Shown piece by piece: positions 3,058 to 54,624 of a DNA stretch of 64,000 nucleotides. This stretch comes from Escherichia phage W70. Positions within the stretch are counted from its first letter, which is position 1, and each line of letters opens with the position of its first letter. Below the pieces are notes generated by a model, which ran no database searches, had not been told where the DNA came from, and saw only the letters and a program-made list of their open reading frames with translations. The stretch lies in the sequence record OP778610. One strand, written 5' to 3'. The position numbers and the translations under genes were made by a program.

Positions 3058-3675
3058 TTGCAAAACGAATCGTTCAGTGTTAAAATAAATATCACGGGAG
3101 CAATGATGGAAAACATTACTATCTCCGACCTTCCTTCACAAACCTATCTGTCCCGAATCCAAAAGGGACGGGCTGTGAAAAAGGCCAATGAGCTACTTAA
3201 ACAGGGCTTCAATAAAGAGGCTTCTATTTCTGGAGCCATTGGCTCCGTTCTTGTCCAAAAAGCTGCACAGAAAGAAGAGATGATTTCTTACGAGATCATT
3301 TACGAACCTGATACGCCGGATGCTCATGGACAATGGATGAGCAAAGAGACACTAGTTAAAGCACAACAAGATTTCAAGAAAGCTCAAGAAATCGGTGCGG
3401 TAACTGAGAACTTGTACCACTTGGTTGATACCGAAGCATTCAAGATCGTAGATCATTGGATTCAGCCAGAAATTGATGTAACTGTCACACAAACAGGAGA
3501 AATCATAAAAGCAGGATCATGGGTAGCAAAGGTTCAATATTCACCTGAAGCATGGGAGTTAAAGAAAGCTGGCATCGTCGGTGGATTATCTCTTCAGTGC
3601 GGTGGTATGTTGAATGAGGAAACAAATGAGCTATCCGATCTTGATTTCAGTATCGAATTGGAAGAGGAAGAATAA
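3058..3675 (+). CDS. head morphogenesis protein (function unknown; position of a prohead protease)
   Basis: 205 aa ORF between portal and scaffold; acidic EEEE C-terminus; no catalytic motif recognised. Start uncertain (ATG at about 3103 possible). Confidence 0.35.
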   Translation: MQNESFSVKINITGAMMENITISDLPSQTYLSRIQKGRAVKKANELLKQGFNKEASISGAIGSVLVQKAAQKEEMISYEIIYEPDTPDAHGQWMSKETLVKAQQDFKKAQEIGAVTENLYHLVDTEAFKIVDHWIQPEIDVTVTQTGEIIKAGSWVAKVQYSPEAWELKKAGIVGGLSLQCGGMLNEETNELSDLDFSIELEEEE

Positions 3676-39887: not shown

Positions 39888-40154
39888 TTAGATATAGTCT
39901 ACACCAGCTTGTTCCAACAAGTCAAGCCTTAATTTAAGTTCTTTTTCACGATAGTCGGAAACAAGTTTATCCTTTTTCTTTTCTTCTTCGTCGAACTGTT
40001 CGAGTGGAAGAATACGAATAATGTGCTCTGCCTTCATGTAGGACGTTGATCCGATAAGCTGAACATTACCATTTGGTAACAATCGACCCTTGATCACCCG
40101 ATAACGAGGGAACAAGTCATATTTAACAATCGCGGTAACTGCTAGATTACTCAT
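39888..40154 (-). CDS. hypothetical protein
   Basis: 88 aa ORF. Confidence 0.45.
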   Translation of the reverse strand: MSNLAVTAIVKYDLFPRYRVIKGRLLPNGNVQLIGSTSYMKAEHIIRILPLEQFDEEEKKKDKLVSDYREKELKLRLDLLEQAGVDYI

Positions 40155-40606: not shown

Positions 40607-40984
40607 CTATACTCCAAATGTGGATTTGATTTCAGCAATAACCTCATGCACATTGTTTTCGTTTACTTCAAATGTGTAGGACGTTGGTTTAAGGAACGTC
40701 TGAGGTGAAACATTAACAAAGAATTCAAATTCATCATTAAAAATTTCAAAGTATTTTCCAGGTGTTGATTCTTGGCTTTTGAAAACAGTACCATCTTCCA
40801 TAGTAACAGAAGAAACAGATTTTTCACCAAGGGTGTATGTTTTTAGCTCGTCAACAACGAAACTGGGGCCGTGGCGACGGAGTATTTCAACCATAGTTCG
40901 GTTAGCTCCACAAATACCAGTACGATTAATAAATAACTCTTCACACCGAGGATTGAGAATATAAGTTTTTCCTACTTGCATCAT
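40607..40984 (-). CDS. Glu/Asp-rich small protein, tandem paralogue 1 of 3
   Basis: 125 aa; conserved VGKTYILNP, HGP.FVV, EDG, E.EF.F, I.EIKSTF. Confidence 0.55.
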   Translation of the reverse strand: MMQVGKTYILNPRCEELFINRTGICGANRTMVEILRRHGPSFVVDELKTYTLGEKSVSSVTMEDGTVFKSQESTPGKYFEIFNDEFEFFVNVSPQTFLKPTSYTFEVNENNVHEVIAEIKSTFGV

Positions 40985-40994
40985 TACAATCTCC

Positions 40995-41354
40995 TTATGC
41001 TAAGTTAAATGTGGATTTGATCAGGTCAATAACCTCTTGTGCGTTGCTCTCCGACACAGATACCTGAATAATTTTAAGGTCGCTGACCTCTTCAAAGTAT
41101 TCGAACTCAGATTCACGAAGTTCAAAGTACATTGCCCCACAGCCCACACTGAATGAATCACACCCTACAGCACCATCTTCTGTTGTGATGTTATTAACAT
41201 ACTCATCACCTTCGATCATGCTCATGTTGTTAACAATAAATCGTGGCCCGTGCTCATCCAGAAAAGAAACAATCTCGTGATTGTAACTTGGGTCAGCCTG
41301 AATAAATTCTTCTACGAGTTTTGGATTAAGTTTATAAGTTTTTCCGACTTCCAT
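40995..41354 (-). CDS. Glu/Asp-rich small protein, tandem paralogue 2 of 3
   Basis: 119 aa; same conserved blocks, C-terminus IDLIKSTFNLA. Confidence 0.55.
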   Translation of the reverse strand: MEVGKTYKLNPKLVEEFIQADPSYNHEIVSFLDEHGPRFIVNNMSMIEGDEYVNNITTEDGAVGCDSFSVGCGAMYFELRESEFEYFEEVSDLKIIQVSVSESNAQEVIDLIKSTFNLA

Positions 41355-41365
41355 CTTTGTTCTCC

Positions 41366-41740
41366 TTACGCCAGGTTAAAGGTAGCTTTAATCAAATCTA
41401 AAGTTTCTTGTGCATTACTACGAGAGACGGCAACCTGAATAATAACAGGGTCTTCATCTTCCCCGACTTCTTTGAAGAAGGGAAATTCACTCTCTGCAAG
41501 TTCAAAGTATACACACTTGTTACCTTCGCAGTCGTGAAAAACGTCACTACCTAAAGTACCATCTTCAAATATGACATTGTTAACATATGCAACATTATCA
41601 TAGAAGTGGGTGGTGTTGACAACAAATTTAGGACCGTGCTTATAAATAAGGTCAACCAATTCTTGATTGTAGCTAGGGTCCATATTGATAAAAGCTTTTT
41701 CTAAGTCTTTATTAAGAATGTAAGTTTTTCCGATTTCCAT
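41366..41740 (-). CDS. Glu/Asp-rich small protein, tandem paralogue 3 of 3
   Basis: Start set at internal MEIGKTYILN (ATG about 41740) with SD gaggag; C-terminus IDLIKATFNLA. Confidence 0.55.
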   Translation of the reverse strand: MEIGKTYILNKDLEKAFINMDPSYNQELVDLIYKHGPKFVVNTTHFYDNVAYVNNVIFEDGTLGSDVFHDCEGNKCVYFELAESEFPFFKEVGEDEDPVIIQVAVSRSNAQETLDLIKATFNLA

Positions 41741-41809: not shown

Positions 41810-41843
41810 CACATAAAAGAAAACCACCCTTCGGGGTGGTTTA
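41810..41843 (-). terminator. rho-independent terminator after the DNA polymerase
   Basis: aaaccaccc-cgaa-gggtggttt hairpin followed by a T-run on the - strand. Confidence 0.65.
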
Positions 41844-41848
41844 AATTA

Positions 41849-42148
41849 CTAGTGGCACGCCCCCCAGTTCATCCCTGTGAGGTATTCACCTGTTATGTGG
41901 ACAGGAGATTTCATCATTCGTGCTGCTTGCTCTACACAACGAACAACCATCTCTCCAACTGGACAATACATGATCGTGTAGATTCCATTCTCATCAGGAT
42001 CACACTTAAACTTCCCTTCTTTCACACAATGACCATCCAAGATCATTTTCTTAGCCAAGCAAGCTTCTACAAATTTCTTCGCGTCAGCTTCGTTGTCAAA
42101 GGTCCAGGTCTTCTTGAACTTGTGCGGTACTTCAAGCTGGTATTCATC
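41849..42148 (-). CDS. DNA polymerase (family A), exon 2
   Basis: Begins DEYQLEV (completing motif C HDE with the His that ends exon 1) and ends TGMNWGACH, resembling the T7 gp5 C-terminus as recalled. The Met at 42199 in the ORF track lies inside the intron. Confidence 0.75.
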   Translation of the reverse strand, partial: DEYQLEVPHKFKKTWTFDNEADAKKFVEACLAKKMILDGHCVKEGKFKCDPDENGIYTIMYCPVGEMVVRCVEQAARMMKSPVHITGEYLTGMNWGACH

Positions 42149-42920
42149 CAAAAGTTTAACGAGGTCGTTACTCTCGCCCACATCATTACATGTTGCCATA
42201 CGTTTTCACATATGGATCGGACTATATCACCATCCTTTTCAGGATGCTCCCCATTTCGACGGCACTTGCTCGCCTACGCCTCTCGGCTAGTCTCTGAACG
42301 TTAGGACCATGTGTAGTCACAAGAGATGTGTGTCCAGTTTTTACGGATTTTTATGGACCTTACCACGTTGTAAGGATAACCCATATCCCGAATCTGTGCA
42401 CTTCCATAACCTTGCCCCAGGAAGTTGCAAATCTCTCTAACCTCTTCTTCGGTAACTATACTTCTGGCGTTATCAACCCCTGTTGCTGAACGACATTTAT
42501 CAGCAAAGGTTTTCTTGATATTTCCACCACGAGTTGTCCATTGGAGGTTTGAATAGTGGTTATTCCTTTTGTCAGGCCACTTATGATCAACCTCCGGCAA
42601 ACCTTCAGGGTTTGGTACAAAACACTCTGCCACCAAAACGTGAACAGCCTTTGTAGTCGTCCTTTTGTTGAGATACAGACTTACAATAAGATACCCACGT
42701 CCATTATCAACTGCCGCCATTGGTTTCCCTCGACGACCTATAATGGTCCCGTCTTCATAAACCTTGTAACCGAAATAATCTTTATATTCCACATGATCCT
42801 CTTCGCTGCTGATTAACATAGTCTCATACTAACTCACACTTGAATTAATATCAACCTTAGTCTTCCAGCAATTAAAGGAGTTTTCGATGTGAGTTACCTC
42901 ACAAAGCCACAATGTTACTT
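42149..42920 (-). mobile_element. group I intron with HNH homing endonuclease, in DNA polymerase motif C
   Basis: About 772 nt between ...YYH and DEYQLEV; - strand carries R element GUUCAGAGACUA (42288-42299) and S-like GAUAUAGUCC (42219-42228); 5-prime exon ends in U, intron ends in G. Confidence 0.75.
42301..42819 (-). CDS. HNH homing endonuclease (intron-encoded)
   Basis: 172 aa; AVHVLVAECFVPNPEGLPEVDHKWPDKRNNHYSNLQW is typical of phage HNH endonucleases; sits wholly inside the intron upstream of the R element. Confidence 0.8.
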   Translation of the reverse strand: MLISSEEDHVEYKDYFGYKVYEDGTIIGRRGKPMAAVDNGRGYLIVSLYLNKRTTTKAVHVLVAECFVPNPEGLPEVDHKWPDKRNNHYSNLQWTTRGGNIKKTFADKCRSATGVDNARSIVTEEEVREICNFLGQGYGSAQIRDMGYPYNVVRSIKIRKNWTHISCDYTWS

Positions 42921-45251
42921 ATGGTAATAGATAATACGTCTAACGCCTTCATCATACCAACCTTTCTTAACCAACTGCCAGTGCAGGAGGATACCCACCA
43001 AGTCAAACAGTGCAGCACCACCATTCTGCTGATAAGCATTAAGCAATGAGTGTTTGGAACGAGTGTAGATCTTACGTCCATCAAGACCGTAGATGAATCG
43101 CTTACCGTTAGCTTCCCAAAACTTCTCTAGTGCTTCTTTACGACCTTTCAAGCCGATGTTGCTATCCCAGAATGCGTCGATTACTGCCTGGGCCTTCTCA
43201 AGAGTGATCCCCAGCATTGATGCAATCTTCGCTGCCTGTGCCCCGTACATAATTCCGTATGTCACACCTTTACCTTCACCACGAGAAACCTTCTTCCCTG
43301 CCGCTTTGGTATACGCTTCTGCGTTTCGGGAGTGAGCATCTCCAGATTCCATGATACGAAGATAAGCACCGCCATCGAAATCATAAGCGCCCCATGCTGC
43401 GATCATACCTTCTAGGTTTGAACCGTCGATACCTACCTGATATTTACCCTCAGAGGCTCTGAATAGTTCACGCATCTCTTTACCGAGAAGAACTTTCTCA
43501 TCCGGCTTAGGTACGTTTGCTACGATCGTATGCTTACGACGACCTGTGTTAGTTATTCCACTATAACGGGCCGGAAGTTTACCGTCAACTCGTAGACGTG
43601 GATGGTTAAGCCATCCGGTATCAACCTTCTCTTCTTTCAGCGGGTCAAGAACAGATCGTCGGTTACGTAAAGACAGCCATTTAACAATCTGTTTAGCCAT
43701 TTCACCATCTACTCGCTCAAGGTTAGGGCAAAGACCCTGTTGATCCTTAAGTTGTGGAGATGTAGGTAATGCACGAGCTTTCTTACGGAAAAACTTGAAC
43801 ATCTTTTCTTTATCTGACCACTGCTTAGGTGTGATCGCCAAGCTTTTCAGAATCAGATCACGATACTCCGTCTGATCCAAATCTTCAATGTATTGACGAA
43901 CAATCAGATCAACTTCACTATCGGGACGTTGTTTCTTGAACTGATCTTTAGTTGCATCCTTTGTACGCCAAATTGTTGGGACCCATCCTGCATCACGGAT
44001 CAGGAACTTCTTAACGTCGTCCTGGTTACCAATACGCATCGGAATCATAATGTCCGGCATCTTTTGTTCTTTGATATCCATCAAAGCACGAGCCATATCT
44101 TCCGGCGGCAAAGGAACAAGCCCTTGCTGCTTAACGTTTTGTGCACGGATAAAATCACCCATTTTGGATTCGTCCTCTACACCGTGTTCAACACAATACT
44201 TGATCGCGGCAGCAGTAAGAGATCCGTCAGCCTTAAACGGCTTACTTGGTGCACCTTTAAATTCCAAGGCTTCCCAATTGATATTATAACCTAACTTCTC
44301 TAACCATTTCCAACCTGTACCGGAAAGAGATCCATCACCCTTGAAAGGTTTGGATGGGAATGTCGGTTGTGCTGATTTCGACATCTCTTTCTTCGGCAAC
44401 TTAGGTTCAACCTCTAACTCAATGTCAGTCATCATCTTATCGATACGATCACGAAGCTTGAGTGCTTTTTCTTCATCAAATGAAACACCCTGAATTTCTT
44501 GCTCAATCATCAGGTAGTCAGTCAACATACCTCGACGCAGGGCATTCTTCCAGTTGATCATTTTATACTTCTTCTGATCTTTGTCTGTTTCATCCTTAAA
44601 CATGAAGCGTTTATCATCCGGCATGGATTCACAGGAGATCTCTTTCATCAGAGCATCCCACACCATTTCGTTGATAATTACGTCTTCAATAATACGATCG
44701 CAATACTTCCAAAGTGGAAGGCCACGCCAATCTTCAATCGCCACTTTCTGGTTAGCTACTCGCATACCCCAAGCTTCAAGCCCGTGTGGCCCTACAGGCT
44801 TCATTTTACCTGTGACGGGGTTCTTTACCATCTCAGGACAACCGCGAGGCAGAGGGCGATCTGGATACAATGTACGGGACATTGAAAGTGTATCGAAGAT
44901 GGTTACTTGTTTACCATTGATCGTCCCCATGCAACCAGGGTCTGCAAACATATCGTAAGTTGTTCCTAGCATCTTCTTAAACAACTGGAGGTCATAGCCG
45001 AAGATGTTGTGGATAGCAACTGCTTTAGGCTCGGTAACGAACCATTCGTTTAATTCTTCAAGGGTGCGGATCTTGAAGTTTTTACCTTTAGATTGGATAA
45101 ATTTAACAGCTTGATCGTAACCTTCTCGCTGTGGATCAAGAAAGATGTTCCAGTTATCTTTTTTGTACTCTTTAAACAAGATGCAGTGGATTAGATCAAC
45201 TTCTGTCAACAGACCATTAGCTTCCGCATCTCCAATAAATAAGCCTTTCAT
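42921..45251 (-). CDS. DNA polymerase (family A), exon 1
   Basis: N-terminal exonuclease motif (FIGDAEANGL), motif A-like GIDGSNLEG, motif B RGEGKGVTYGIMYGA; the track ORF terminates at an in-intron stop just after YYH. Confidence 0.85.
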
Positions 45252-51449: not shown

Positions 51450-51962
51450 TCAGAAAGGTGCTTCGTCGTCGAAATCTACATCTTCAACTTCCGGTACATC
51501 AGGAATGTCACCTGCGGATTCAACGATACTCTGTTGTTCCCACGTAGGTTCCTCTGAAGGTTGGTCCATTTCTTCCATAACCTTCTTGATCTCTTCCTCT
51601 TGCTCACGCAGGAAGTTATCATCCGGCTCAGGAATATCTTCCTCTTTAATATCTGAACGAGTGAGATCACTGTTTTGTTCAGACAGAGGTTGAATCTCTG
51701 CTGCTTTAGGCTTAAAGTCTGGAGAACGATGATCATCTTCTGGATGAGCGGCATACCACTCACGAAGAGTTTCATAAGGACTCTCTAAGAAGCCCTCTGG
51801 CGGTTCCAGATAATCACCCGTATCAATGTCATAGAACACAGGGAATTTACCAGCACGACCGTGTTTACGGTCATCCAGAATAACAAAGTAAGAAGTGTTA
51901 CGTTGTTTCATCGGGAGTTCTGGATCTTTGTTACGTTCAATTCCCCACATATAGTAAGTATT
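51450..51962 (-). CDS. primase-helicase (T7 gp4-like), exon 3
   Basis: Begins about NTYYMWGIERN (resembling T7 LSDTIIALERN as recalled); ends with acidic tail ...EDVDFDDEAPF with terminal Phe. The track's N-terminal 64 residues are intron sequence. Confidence 0.7.
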   Translation of the reverse strand, partial: NTYYMWGIERNKDPELPMKQRNTSYFVILDDRKHGRAGKFPVFYDIDTGDYLEPPEGFLESPYETLREWYAAHPEDDHRSPDFKPKAAEIQPLSEQNSDLTRSDIKEEDIPEPDDNFLREQEEEIKKVMEEMDQPSEEPTWEQQSIVESAGDIPDVPEVEDVDFDDEAPF

Positions 51963-52808
51963 CTTTATGTCCAGGCTACTCGCTAGGTAGCCTCGGTGTG
52001 CTAAGACACCCGCCCATACTTTCATACAGGAACAGACTATATCATCACCTTTCGGTGCTCTCCACTTCGGAACCGCTTGGTCCCTACGCCTTTCGGCTAG
52101 TCGTTGAAGATTTTGCATATTCAGGATACATGGTCCAAGTATACAGATTGGCAATTTCTTTCCAATCCCTTTTGCTTCGGATGTTTAGAACAACCGCCCT
52201 TTTAACTTGAATGCCACTACTTTCGGCTATTCTCTTTGCAGTCCATCCCTCTGAAAGTAACTGGCATATCTTATGCACGTCGTTTTCAGAAAGTCCGGTA
52301 CTGTAATGATCTTGCCCTCTAATTGGTAATTTGTTTTCTATCGAGTGTCGAAGATTTTCCTCTTCTGTTACCCACTCAAGGTTATCTTTATGATTGTTCA
52401 ACTTATTACCGTCTTTATGATTTACCTCTGGTAAATTTAAAGGGTTTGGTATATAAGCCTTCGCGACCATCCTGTGAACATACTCAGGCTTCCGCTTACC
52501 ATTTAAGATAACATTAACAACAAAATACCCTGTACCCTTACTTAATGAATTTTTAAGGAATCTTCCTGAAAATTCACTAAAAACTTGTCCATCTTCAGTG
52601 ATAAAGTATGGACTGTTTTCTTCTATTCTTACCATAAGTCCCCTCTTTCATGGGACCAAGATCTAGAATATGCAACTTTCCTGCTGATTACCCAATCCTG
52701 TACCTTTTTAAACATTCACGCTTGCCTTTGCAGACTACGTTGTAGTGTTACAGGCTCTAAGGGCTTCCCAGCAATTCAAAGAGTTTTAGATGCGCTCTAC
52801 TGCTGTTA
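51963..52808 (-). mobile_element. group I intron with HNH homing endonuclease, in helicase motif H4
   Basis: About 846 nt; R-like CUUCAACGACUAGCC (about 52093-52107) and S-like GAUAUAGUCUG (about 52033-52043) on the - strand; 5-prime exon ends CGU, intron ends in G; 3-prime boundary good to roughly +/-20 nt. Confidence 0.7.
52084..52635 (-). CDS. HNH homing endonuclease (intron-encoded)
   Basis: 183 aa; YVHRMVAKAYIPNPLNLPEVNHKDGNKLNNHKDNLEW; similar to the polymerase-intron HNH. Confidence 0.8.
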   Translation of the reverse strand: MVRIEENSPYFITEDGQVFSEFSGRFLKNSLSKGTGYFVVNVILNGKRKPEYVHRMVAKAYIPNPLNLPEVNHKDGNKLNNHKDNLEWVTEEENLRHSIENKLPIRGQDHYSTGLSENDVHKICQLLSEGWTAKRIAESSGIQVKRAVVLNIRSKRDWKEIANLYTWTMYPEYAKSSTTSRKA

Positions 52809-53402: not shown

Positions 53403-53688
53403 CACCGTTATGTTCGACAGGGTTCGCTACTCCCTGCCCGTTCTCTTACGAACTGCTACATGTCCCCATGCAGACCAGACTATATCTTCAACCTGTTTCC
53501 AGGTGCTATGCACTTCGGACCGCTTGGCCCTACTCTACTCGATTCAAGAGTCTAGCTCTTGTCTTTCGATAGTCGTTGCTCCTTCCTTTTTCAAGGCTTG
53601 GATCAGGATTACGTGTTCTACGCTTCCCCTGAGTTCACATAGTATTTAGTCGAGGCATCTCTGCCAAGGCTGGCTAGACTTAATGTTT
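53403..53688 (-). ncRNA. ORF-less group I intron in the helicase Walker A codons
   Basis: 286 nt between ...FIGAG and KMGKS; - strand contains P/Q-like CAGGGGAAG and AAUCCUGAUCC, R-like CAACGACUAUCG and S-like AAGAUAUAGUCU in the canonical order; 5-prime exon ends in U, intron ends in G. Confidence 0.7.
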
Positions 53689-54624
53689 ACCAGCACCGAT
53701 GAAGTAACCTTCACCTGGACGACGACCCAAGGTAAGCTTGGTCATGGTGGGCCAAGGGAACTTCTTGCCGAGTTTAGGGATCTCATGTGCCTTTTCGCGG
53801 AACTGTGAATAAGTCGAGAAACCATCAGGCACATATTCTTTTGGCTTCATTGCAGCCCAAAACAACTGATCAGAAAGACCTTTGTTATACATATCGCAAG
53901 GGTCCATATCTTCTGGAATATCCACGACCTTCATTTGTGGAATTACAGAGTATACCGCTGCAACTGCATCTTTACCTTTCATGATCCCTTTGGCCTTCTC
54001 TGCTTCTGTCGCACGGTCAGCATCGAAAGCTACGATAATCTCTTCAAACTTACTCAGAAGCTTATAGTTATTCTTCTGTGATAAGTTTTGCACGGCATTG
54101 GATGTACCGTTAGAGATAGATACAACTGTGAAGTTTGGTTTACGAGTGGAACCATCCTTCGGTTTGTACTTCTCTGTCAATACCTGCCACAAGATTGCAG
54201 CATCGTATTCACCTTCAGTGATAAAGATCATACGTTTGGAAGACTTGTTTGCACCTTCCAGACCAAACATATCACAGGCTACAGATTGGAAACCGATAGT
54301 TGTAAAGTGCCCTTTCTGTTGCTTAGGGATCGTAAGATCACGCTTTTTAAAACCTACAACCTTACCTTCCAATGTGTACGGAAAATAATGTGCTTCTGGA
54401 GTCATACCGTCTTTAGCTGACAACTTGGTACGAATACCAAATCGTTTAGCTGTCTTTTCGTCGATACCACGCTCAGGGATACTTTTACACGGGTAAGTCA
54501 ATACATCTTCAACTGTTTCTTCCACACGAGACACACCGCCGCCATAATTACGTGCCACCGAAGCTTTAGGGTTTTTATGTCCAAACTTATAACCGCCAAA
54601 CAAACTTTCGCCAATAGTGCTCAT
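53689..54624 (-). CDS. primase-helicase (T7 gp4-like), exon 1
   Basis: TOPRIM-like motifs (FITEGEYDAAIL, VAFDADRATEAEKA), then helicase N-terminus ending ...RRPGEGYFIGAG; SD AAGGAG plus ATG at 54624; no Cys4 zinc finger before the RNA polymerase domain. Confidence 0.8.

Follow-up and report, generated by a model that had tools for sequence, protein, structure and literature searches.

A group I intron, probably mobile, with a predicted HNH endonuclease gene in motif C of the DNA polymerase gene of an A73-like Escherichia phage

The polymerase gene and its interruption

The window (the whole 64,000-nt stretch of DNA analyzed here) comes from the genome of an Escherichia phage A73-like virus of the Vequintavirinae. 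A family A (T7 gp5-like) DNA polymerase gene lies on its minus strand, as do the features of this locus described below, and is divided into two parts. Exon 1 (42921..45251) ends with ...ATC TAT TAC CAT (I-Y-Y-H), is recognized by Pfam DNA_pol_A (42.8 bits) and is collinear with the uninterrupted polymerase of UPEC06. Exon 2 (41849..42148), which reads identically in UPEC06, encodes DEYQLEV...GMNWGACH followed by a stop codon, so that the Asp-Glu of motif C and the C-terminus are found downstream, as the first-pass annotation had stated. A terminator-like hairpin with a T-run (41821..41842) is located just 3' of the polymerase stop codon. The same annotation had the polymerase reading frame stop right after YYH. 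The break is indeed at YYH, but one further codon (Lys, AAG) precedes the stop, the frame 45251..42915 ending with ...IIYYH-K-stop in the list of open reading frames. Since the insertion opens with the Lys codon AAG and the UAA stop (six bases), exon 1 ends at 42921, a T.

The exons are separated by 772 nt (42149..42920), running from AAGUAACAUUGUGG... to ...UUAAACUUUUG. The insertion separates the His codon of catalytic motif C from the Asp codon (H|DE). In UPEC06 and A7_1, whose genes are 94-96% identical, the polymerase is uninterrupted and reads ...RRIIYYHDEYQLEV..., which places the insertion unambiguously at 42920..42149. Removal of these nucleotides yields the exact gene, with no base gained or lost, as the alleles of UPEC06, A7_1, CR3, F1M1E and POP15 all read YYH-DEYQLEV. 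Position 42921 joined to 42148 is in frame and gives the conceptual product ...RRIIYYH|DEYQLEV... (nucleotides ...ATCTATTACCAT|GATGAATACCAG..., junction peptide IIYYHDEYQLEVPHK), restoring Y-H-D-E base for base as in the intron-less alleles; the U at the end of the 5' exon and the G at the end of the intron (42149) are also where they had been proposed. In the MAFFT alignment of intron-plus and intron-less alleles, exon 1 was spread over the intron, and the junction was therefore taken from direct reading and translations. In the comparison with T7 gp5, which had been suggested as a check, the alignment of the conceptual product runs across the junction (YYHDEYQL versus WVHDEIQV, with the motif C Asp-Glu). 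Exon 1 ends with TACCAT in 13 of 13 intron-bearing alleles, and with TATCAT or TACCAC in all five intron-less ones.

An intein is ruled out by the stop codon (AAG UAA) one codon past the junction, and there are no features of a group II intron, the group I model being the one that fits.

The ribozyme core and splicing

The 772-nt insertion contains a complete set of helices from P1 to P9.2, including the P3/P7 pseudoknot, P7.1-GUA-P7.2 and the terminal G. P1 (42907..42924) is formed by exon CCAU and intron AA with the internal guide UUGUGG, with a U.G wobble at the 5' splice site; its six pairs are all kept in 13 sequences, it is recovered by the minimum free energy (MFE) fold, and the splice-site U.G pair (exon CCAU, guide GUGG) is invariant (13/13). 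P10 is possible, the guide (CAUU) being able to pair with GAUG of exon 2. The P2 hairpin UGUGAG-GUAA-CUCACA (42888..42903), with a GNRA loop, shows compensatory changes in 6/6 pairs and is present in the MFE fold. The 5' strand of P3, CUCCUU (42875..42880), has its partner at 42252..42247, with three of the six pairs compensatory and 100% of cells paired. P4 (UGCUGG/UCAGCA) and P5 (GAC/GUU), both recovered by the MFE fold, are followed by the P5a/P5b extension (42807..42870 together). The 3' strand of P6a, CACAUGGUCCU (42303..42313), consists of the last codons and the stop of an internal reading frame, whose loop is closed by 11 bp, and all nine counted P6a pairs show compensatory changes.

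The R element GUUCAGAGACUA (42288..42299) comprises the 3' strand of P6 (GU), J6/7 and the 5' strand of P7 (GACUA); the claimed R sequence, GTTCAGAGACTA, is present at 42299..42288 and is the sole match in the window at one mismatch or fewer. Pairing in P7 is retained at 100%, with a change from U-A to C-G in SSE121 and VLCpiM5b. The following segment (42258..42287) carries P7.1 (GCC-GAGA-GGC), a GUA linker and P7.2 (GGCG-A-GC...GCCGUC), the signature of subgroup IA2. This subgroup is defined by the extra helices P7.1 and P7.2, linked by G-U-A, between P7 and P3' (PMC3428280), and in the window the arrangement GCCGAGAGGC-GUA-GGCGAGCAAGUGCCGUC occupies 42287..42258, with covarying pairs in P7.2. 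The 3' strand of P3, GGGGAG (42247..42252), forms the P3/P7 pseudoknot, supported by covariation, and is followed by the P8 hairpin CAUCCU-GAAA-AGGAUG (42231..42246; five of six pairs compensatory, recovered by the MFE fold).

The S element GAUAUAGUCC (42219..42228), which includes the 3' strand of P7 (UAGUC), is identified by the RF00028 alignment. The first-pass annotation had put an S-like element about 70 nt before the 3' splice site, and GATATAGTCC at 42228..42219 is exactly 70 nt from this site, on its 5' side. The decamer GATATAGTCY occurs four times in the window, with 0.24 occurrences expected; three of the four copies fall in the window's three intron-like insertions. The core is completed by the P9, P9.1 and P9.2 hairpins (42160..42215), supported by covariation and the MFE fold, and by the terminal intron G at the 3' splice site (42149), which is G in 13/13 orthologues.

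The covariance model of group I introns, RF00028, aligns with 42930..42197 over its full length (39.7 bits; E = 1.9e-8 locally and 1.2e-6 over the whole window), with the R and S elements matching the consensus and with a 497-nt insertion in P6. The score is below the curated Rfam gathering score of 50 bits, because of the 497-nt insertion containing the reading frame and not because of missing core elements, as orthologues without such a frame score 70-74 bits. Four orthologues sharing the insertion point, with or without a reading frame, reach 73.7 (JEP1), 69.8 (VLCpiM5b), 56.7 (CR9) and 54.4 bits (PVP-SE1). A whole-window Rfam scan with default settings at the gathering threshold returned only another intron (53456-53721) and missed the one at 42920..42149, so that a local E-value scan was required.

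Covariation was analyzed in 13 introns at this site from Escherichia, Cronobacter, Salmonella, Klebsiella, Pectobacterium, Vibrio and Aeromonas phages (alignment A2). Over these introns 95.0% of the cells are paired, compared with 79.3% in shuffles and 31-41% when the partners are slid. Compensatory changes on both sides are seen in 41 of 73 pairs, a count matched by none of 500 shuffles. The MAFFT alignment A2 has errors in P4/P5 (a one-base bulge in some clades), in part of P6a and in one P9.1 pair, and the cells that appear unpaired in P4/P5, P6a and P9.1 are mostly artefacts of the alignment. Independent MFE folds of the two intron halves recover P1, P2, P4, P5 and P7-P9.2, with z = -3.6 and -2.5. 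Chance co-occurrence of the R and S elements is excluded by the full-length model alignment and covariation. Together with the intron-less alleles, the RF00028 match and the covariation bear out the proposal of a group I intron with an HNH gene inside motif C.

An entirely different reading assumes no RNA splicing: a homing endonuclease gene would have been inserted into the polymerase gene, and polypeptides of 778 aa and ~100-116 aa would assemble after translation. A precedent for such an organization is found in Aeromonas phage Aeh1, whose NrdA is split by mobE. The nearly identical public genomes of A73, LTH01 and A5-4 are annotated in this manner, with two DNA polymerase CDS and an unnamed 'hypothetical protein' between them, and in the window's clade there is an in-frame AUG 51 nt upstream of exon 2. 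However, this AUG (42199), from which the deposited second polymerase CDS starts, lies inside the 3' strand of helix P9, has no Shine-Dalgarno sequence and is either missing or in another frame in the FV3, JEP1, K470, 10AMN and 4L372D clades; no conserved in-frame start or Shine-Dalgarno sequence was found before exon 2. Moreover, the interruption splits a single motif, separating its His from the catalytic Asp, the reading frame is enclosed by a complete covarying ribozyme core, and insertions of 253-343 nt without a reading frame exist at the same site, for which a free-standing endonuclease gene is no explanation. One HNH insertion in another gene of Pectobacterium phage vB_PatM_CB7 did not splice (PMC7344957), but the orthologous intron CB7_50 in the polymerase gene of this phage splices in infected cells, as shown by RT-PCR and Sanger sequencing (PMC7344957). 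We consider the split gene highly improbable.

The window copy might also be a group I derivative that no longer splices efficiently, leaving the polymerase impaired or dependent on a factor. The Rfam score below the gathering cut-off is in line with this, and the long P5a/b extension and the 497-nt insertion might slow folding. On the other hand, all core helices are intact, and the catalytic half, which extends from CAGAGACUA (R element) to the S element inclusive, has the same sequence as in the splicing-competent CB7 intron. Three phages keep near-identical copies, and the polymerase is presumably essential for phage replication in a group isolated as viable plaque formers. Such decay thus seems very unlikely, and by homology the window copy is expected to splice.

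The preferred reading of 42920..42149, held with high confidence, is thus a mobile, self-splicing group I intron (subgroup IA2) that interrupts the T7-like family A DNA polymerase gene. The polymerase pre-mRNA would contain a stop codon one codon into the intron. The intron RNA would fold into the P1-P9.2 core, and an external guanosine would attack after the last U of the exon, held by its U.G pair with the guide UUGUGG. The freed 5' exon would then attack after the terminal G, producing the ligated ...UAC CAU|GAU GAA..., and this joining would result in a single 876-aa polymerase with an intact active site.

The HNH reading frame and intron mobility

The loop of P6a contains the reading frame of a predicted HNH homing endonuclease (42301..42819; 172 aa from the first AUG), situated, as had been noted earlier, between the 5' half of the core and the R element. 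Translation probably starts at the GUG at 42792, nine codons past the first AUG, which gives 163 aa. A Shine-Dalgarno sequence GAGGA with a 4-nt spacer precedes this in-frame GUG (42790..42801 together) inside the 5' strand of P6a (AGGAUCAUGUG). The 492-nt reading frames annotated in LTH01, PBES02 and SSE121 have the length expected from the GUG start, and SSE121 has AUG where the window has GUG.

The product matches the HNH family PHROG 59 (E = 1e-33), and its only match among solved structures in PDB is I-HmuI (1U3E, E = 3.5e-5; residues 13-118 versus 7-111, similar length), with the catalytic D-H...N...N residues aligned (VDHKWPDKRNNHYSNLQWTTRGGN versus VDHKDGNKDNNLSTNLRWVTQKIN of I-HmuI). 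The Pfam HNH_3 score of 23.9 bits is marginally below the 24.8 cut-off, and no Pfam DNA-binding domain was found in the C-terminal third up to E = 5. The protein is predicted to be an I-HmuI-like HNH endonuclease, with a putative nuclease activity and a presumed target in intron-less polymerase alleles.

A sigma-70-like site, TTGATA-17 nt-TAGTAT (42826..42854; 9/12 matches), is located inside P5a/P5b, just upstream of the reading frame. By itself it is not above chance, as the promoter scan found four sites with 3.2 expected. The hexamers are retained in CR9, PBES02 and SSE121, with variable spacers, and in Aeromonas phage 4L372D they are the full consensus TTGACA-17-TATAAT. This conservation suggests a candidate internal promoter. 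The ribosome-binding site and probable GUG start of the endonuclease are base-paired in P6a, and both this pairing and the candidate promoter may have a role in expression of the endonuclease.

The comparison of close relatives bears on mobility. The intron differs from the LTH01 and A5-4 copies in 1 of 772 positions, while in the same pairs of phages the difference is 2.7-2.8% for exon 1 and 2.3-11% for exon 2. The intron is thus about 20 times less diverged than the exons, with one difference versus ~21 expected at the exon rate, and this near-identity points to recent homing. In the last 25 nt of exon 1, seven synonymous differences, at -25 to -4, separate the window from its intron-less relatives (28% versus a background of ~4%). 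This flanking tract resembles the product of co-conversion; alternatively, the clustered synonymous differences could reflect constraints of P1 or of the target site. The presence of the intron varies among close relatives.

It may also be that the intron splices, but the HNH frame is an inactive passenger and inheritance is strictly vertical. The nuclease activity is a prediction, the Pfam score is marginal, and the derivatives without a reading frame found in relatives show that it can be lost. We regard this as unlikely, though less so than the split gene or the decayed ribozyme, as the frame is intact, with its catalytic residues aligned to those of I-HmuI, and both the low divergence of the intron among the A73-like phage, LTH01 and A5-4 and its variable presence, along with the co-conversion-like tract, argue against purely vertical descent. 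With a mobile intron, the endonuclease would cut or nick intron-less polymerase alleles of co-infecting relatives, and during repair these alleles would acquire a copy of the intron along with a few dozen bases of flanking sequence, which constitutes homing.

Relatives and known systems

The intron is real and strongly supported, but it is not new: introns of this type have already been reported at this site in related phages. As splicing of the orthologous intron has been demonstrated and the insertion site has been in the literature since 2004, no new question is opened. The value of the finding is in annotation: the gene should be given one 876-aa polymerase product, joined at 42921/42148, and the reading frame left unnamed in the deposited records is predicted to encode an HNH homing endonuclease. 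The polymerase CDS of BASEL phage WalterGehring has been deposited as a two-part join. The locus is a textbook-clean case of a mobile intron within the most conserved codons of an essential enzyme, and natural relatives with the intron, without it, without a reading frame or with a different one could be used in homing or phage-competition experiments.

The closest characterized system is CB7 (Certrevirus, Vequintavirinae), which shares with the window the subfamily, the gene and the insertion point ...TACCAT|GATGAA... (YH|DE). Its core is ~93% identical over the aligned core pieces. The CB7 endonuclease frame is shorter (127 aa; 31% identity over 100 residues) and, unlike the window's, begins in the P5 loop, preceded by a sigma-70 promoter close to the consensus. 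The CB7 polymerase gene also has a second intron further upstream, absent from the window.

The same insertion point and a homologous core are found in other Vequintavirinae and in Vibrio and Aeromonas phages (FV3 and rV5-like, PVP-SE1, SSE121, KP12, VLCpiM5b, JEP1, K470 and 4L372D). Their cargo varies: an I-HmuI-like HNH gene in P6a (A73, and FV3 with 51% identity to the window's), a distant short HNH gene starting from P5 (CB7, 4L372D), a LAGLIDADG gene in the P7.1 region (PVP-SE1) or no reading frame (JEP1, VLCpiM5b, K470 and 10AMN; 253-343 nt). Each cargo appears to bring its own sigma-70-like promoter. The intron is present, always at H|DE, in unrelated phage groups: the Vequintavirinae, Plateaulakevirus, Vibrio myoviruses and small uncultured viral contigs, and perhaps the T7-like PhiI and W31. 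One tentative explanation is that a single ribozyme lineage served as a shared vehicle loaded several times independently, the window copy being an active member shortly after homing. Introns with the same guide are also observed after ...H-F-H| codons in genes resembling anaerobic ribonucleotide reductases, which would suggest movement between genes via a reused CAU|GA target.

T7-like coliphages PhiI and W31 also carry group I introns (Bonocora and Shub 2004), which, as summarized in PMC3428280, interrupt a T7-type family A polymerase at site 881 of E. coli Pol I, the His of H-D-E. The same summary assigns them to subgroup IA2 and places an HNH gene in P6a, with endonuclease expression thought to be limited by the ribosome-binding site (PMC3428280). 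By this published description, the H-D-E His site, the IA2 core and the HNH frame in P6a are shared with the window. PhiI and W31 are podoviruses, a phage group other than that of the window, and no T7-like phages were among the blastn matches listed for three different intron cores used as queries.

The family A polymerase genes of phages SPO1, SP82 and Bastille are likewise interrupted by group I introns with HNH genes, encoding I-HmuI, I-HmuII and I-BasI, and I-BasI is also reached by tblastn with the window's reading frame. These introns occupy polymerase site 674 (E. coli numbering), in the fingers, in phages of Gram-positive hosts (PMC3428280), and thus differ from the window in the insertion site.

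The polymerase gene and the exon junction

In the polymerase part of the window, every gene is carried by the - strand. The family A DNA polymerase ORF (45251..42915, 778 codons, matching family A DNA polymerases) ends in ...RRIIYYH-K-stop; the stop described in the first-pass annotation is indeed near YYH, but not immediately after it, as an AAG codon of the intron is read first, followed by UAA. The C-terminal frame (DEYQLEV... to ...GMNWGACH-stop, 42148 to 41849) is encoded downstream, as had been noted, and a second ORF (42819..42301, 172 codons) lies between the polymerase parts. The proposed U closing the 5' exon and G closing the intron are found as T at 42921 and G at 42149, and joining 42921 to 42148 yields, in frame, an 876-aa protein with YYHDEYQLEV. 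The observation is confirmed, with the extra AAG codon of the upstream ORF as the sole correction.

Escherichia phage A73 (Vequintavirinae) shares 99.9% identity with the window across the polymerase region. The match to the close relatives UPEC06 and A7_1 is split in two, their polymerase being a single uninterrupted CDS (...GVRRIIYYHDEYQLEVPHKFKK... in UPEC06). The site reads ...CAT/GATGAA... in intron-less DNA and ...CAT/AAGTAAC...CTTTTG/GATGAA... in the window, and since the bases flanking each boundary differ, the insertion is unambiguously 42920..42149 (772 nt). The same protein junction is present in three more intron-less relatives (CR3, F1M1E, POP15), and the restoration of Y-H-D-E by splicing is borne out by the conceptual join and the intron-less alleles alike. 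Exon 1 ends in TAC CAT in 13/13 intron-bearing alleles, while the Tyr-His codons of all five intron-less alleles are TAT CAT or TAC CAC; the TAC CAT end fits the requirement for CCAU-guide pairing and U at the splice site.

Among solved structures, T7 DNA polymerase chains match the spliced protein best (E 4e-15), and the alignment crosses the junction onto H-D-E (...vrriiyyhdeyql in the window, ...faymawvhdeiqv in T7), which is motif C of family A polymerases (Asp654/Glu655 in T7, Asp882/Glu883 in E. coli Pol I). Of the two catalytic carboxylates, one comes from this motif, which would be missing from the 778-aa protein translated from unspliced RNA.

Production of the polymerase as two polypeptides, which the GenBank annotation implies by starting a second polymerase CDS at an in-frame AUG 51 nt 5' of exon 2, has no support: this AUG is inside helix P9 without a Shine-Dalgarno sequence, and the in-frame AUG is absent or out of frame in 5/13 orthologues, so that a separately translated C-terminal fragment, the outcome that would have spoken against the intron, has no conserved start. 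The sole universal in-frame "start" is UUG, made by the last three bases of the intron. Free-standing endonuclease genes, in turn, cannot account for ORF-less insertions at the same site. An intein is ruled out by the stop codon immediately after the junction.

The ribozyme core and its covariation

The R element GTTCAGAGACTA (42299..42288, - strand, no second copy in the window) and the S element GATATAGTCC (42228..42219, - strand, 70 nt 5' of the proposed 3' splice site) are at the places proposed for them. The - strand can be folded into P1 (UUGUGG paired with exon CCAU and AA, U.G at the splice site), P2 (UGUGAG/CUCACA, GNRA loop), P3 (CUCCUU/GGGGAG), P4 (UGCUGG/UCAGCA), P5 (GAC/GUU with a P5a/P5b extension), P6 (GC/GU), P6a (11-bp stem AGGAUCAUGUG/CACAUGGUCCU, closing the ORF loop), P7 (GACUA/UAGUC), P7.1-GUA-P7.2, P8 (CAUCCU/AGGAUG) and P9, P9.1 and P9.2, followed by the terminal G. 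P10 is possible, as guide CAUU can pair with GAUG, the first bases of exon 2. Subgroup IA2 is defined by P7.1 and P7.2 joined by G-U-A (PMC3428280), and the window intron, having this junction, belongs here. MFE folds of each half of the window copy alone recover the same helices (z = -3.6 and -2.5).

At the Rfam gathering threshold, the search of the whole window misses this intron and reports only another one (53456..53721). The covariance-model scan suggested in the first-pass annotation does give a full-length local alignment of RF00028 to 42930..42197, with a 497-nt insertion in P6, but at 39.7 bits, below the curated 50 bits (E 1.9e-8 local, 1.2e-6 for the whole window). Same-site orthologues score above the cut-off in JEP1 (73.7 bits), VLCpiM5b (69.8), CR9 (56.7) and PVP-SE1 (54.4), and below it in CB7 (46.6) and FV3 (30.4); those of JEP1 (328 nt) and VLCpiM5b (343 nt) are ORF-less.

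The covariation analysis covered 13 introns at the identical ...YH/DE... site, aligned after ORF trimming, from Vequintavirinae phages of Escherichia, Cronobacter, Salmonella, Klebsiella and Pectobacterium, Vibrio K470 and 10AMN, and Aeromonas 4L372D. Under the proposed structure 95.0% of cells are paired, compared to 79.3% in column shuffles and 31-41% when each pairing partner is shifted by 1-3 columns. Two-sided changes occur in 41/73 pairs, and the observed values were reached by 0/500 shuffles. Several pair types are seen in P2, P3, P6a, P7.2, P8, P9, P9.1 and P9.2; P7 changes from U-A to C-G in two of the 13 sequences, and P1 shows no variation. Alignment offsets account for most of the rare unpaired cells of P4, P5 and P6a. 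A decayed copy that no longer splices is unlikely: no helix is damaged, and from CAGAGACUA up to and including the S element the core matches CB7 base for base. The first-pass interpretation is correct in all essentials, and the finding is genuine.

The endonuclease and intron mobility

The ORF between the 5' part and R was correctly recognized as an HNH gene: it matches PHROG 59 (HNH endonuclease) with E 1e-33, and Pfam HNH_3 with 23.9 bits (cut-off 24.8). Its single solved-structure match is I-HmuI (1U3E, E 3.5e-5, residues 13-118 against 7-111), the nicking endonuclease from the SPO1 polymerase intron, with which the HNH residues D-H, N-N and the final N align. The FV3 and rV5-type intron ORF is 51% identical to the window ORF, CB7_50 31% over 100 residues, and by tblastn the family turns up in 736 phage records, I-BasI among them.

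The first AUG (42819) falls within the P5 3' strand, behind a poor ribosome-binding site; nine codons further an in-frame GUG (42792) is preceded by GAGGA with 4-nt spacing. The annotated ORF of LTH01, PBES02 and SSE121 is 492 nt, the length expected from this GUG, and SSE121 has AUG there. Since GAGGA and GUG are both in the P6a 5' strand, the folded intron would hide them. A sigma-70-like TTGATA-17-TAGTAT (42854..42826, in P5a/b) is by itself not above chance; its hexamers are retained in CR9, PBES02 and SSE121 with different spacers, and the CB7 (TTGACA-16-TATGAT) and 4L372D (TTGACA-17-TATAAT) cassettes have sites in the same place, which makes independent transcription of the endonuclease gene from this candidate promoter plausible. 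Such near-consensus sites lie in the P5 loop, abutting the endonuclease genes from upstream, at 3100-3150 of the CB7 sequence (L006), ~1870-1905 of 4L372D (L013) and 669-695 of PVP-SE1 (L008), where one is labelled as a promoter in the record.

A single intron position of 772 (0.13%) separates the window from the intron-bearing LTH01 and A5-4, against 2.7-2.8% of exon 1 and 2.3-11% of exon 2; the exon rate would predict ~21 differences in the intron. From -48 to +20 the flanks are identical. Relative to intron-less UPEC06 and A7_1, seven synonymous differences crowd into the final 25 nt of exon 1 (28%), the preceding 150-175 nt have none, and other parts ~4%. Taken together with presence and absence in close relatives, these differences are what recent homing with co-conversion should leave behind, although some exon 1 changes may have been selected for P1 pairing or protection from the endonuclease.

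Neighboring elements, annotation and known systems

Extra free-standing HNH genes abut the polymerase upstream in PBES02 and POP15 and downstream in CB7 (L004 1-508, L018 996-1508, L006 3989-4474 in the relatives' sequences), and CB7 has a second polymerase intron (L006 ~1946-2616, RF00028 47 bits). The polymerase locus in Vequintavirinae is a homing-element hotspot. In the window, an ORF-less group I intron (53407-53689, - strand, Rfam match 53456-53721, 70.4 bits) splits the primase/helicase gene between ~residue 312 and the next exon; in A73 this gene is uninterrupted, so that the window must come from a phage other than A73, with 95-96% identity there against 99.9% at the polymerase. An 844-nt insertion in the same gene (51960-52803, - strand), absent from A73, is probably a third intron: of a group I core it contains the 3' half, with R-like UUCAACGACUA, P7.1/P7.2 and S GAUAUAGUCU (RF00028 25 bits, E 4.6e-4), and its 183-aa HNH ORF (52084-52635, - strand) scores 34.5 bits with Pfam HNH_3. 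A fourth S-like decamer, GATATAGTCT (39891-39900), on the + strand opposite all genes there and with no other intron features noticed, is probably due to chance. Directly 3' of the polymerase there are three tandem paralogous ORFs of ~119-125 aa each (40607-41740, - strand; MEIGKTYILNKDL..., MEVGKTYKLNPKL..., MMQVGKTYILNPRC...), sharing ...HGP-F-V... and ending in ...TFNLA or ...TFGV. In the Klebsiella phage VLCpiM5b (L007), the P6 loop has an ~85-nt insert (~701-785), 80-90% identical to unannotated intergenic sequences of unrelated phages (Proteus PM135, Klebsiella K64-1, Erwinia Hena1, Rhizobium phages), and is possibly a small mobile element or a structured one.

Cargo on the shared core differs within Vequintavirinae: HNH occupies P6a, LAGLIDADG the P7.1 region of PVP-SE1, and some copies carry none. 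An IMG/VR scan for the P1/guide motif yielded 20 contigs, including more polymerase genes, ending in ...YYH/, ...AYH/, ...EYH/ and ...HTH/. Three or four others end in ...HFH/ or ...HIH/ and, by their N-termini, are putative anaerobic ribonucleotide reductases. Contigs L022, L024, L033 and L036 have CCAU/AANUAANAUUGUGGC after exons ending in ...VHFH, ...LHFH, ...IKIH and ...IHIH. The three genes read at the N-terminus (L024, L033, L036) have ATP-cone-like sequences (NSNK...STQRD), resembling those of this reductase, a hint that the same guide may serve related introns in another gene.

OP778609 (A73), PP430345 (LTH01) and OP744025 (A5-4) divide the polymerase into two CDS and call the endonuclease a "hypothetical protein"; in window coordinates the misannotated regions are 41849-42199 (second polymerase CDS) and 42301-42819 (endonuclease). 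As its AUG sits in P9, the first 17 codons of the former are intron sequence. The main use of the finding is annotation correction for A73-like genomes; in the BASEL phage WalterGehring the polymerase has been deposited as a joined CDS.

In CB7, the HNH-containing insertions that lie between CB7_53/51 and between CB7_51/49 are removed from the polymerase mRNA, according to RT-PCR and Sanger sequencing (PMC7344957), and the second of them, with CB7_50, is the orthologue of the window intron. The introns of SPO1, SP82, Bastille and Pf-WMP3 occupy another site, 674, while those of T7-like PhiI and W31 are at Pol I site 881, belong to IA2 and carry an HNH ORF in P6a (PMC3428280), and by this description share site and architecture with the window intron. 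The intron to which the window copy is orthologous has thus been validated by experiment, and the insertion site has been published.
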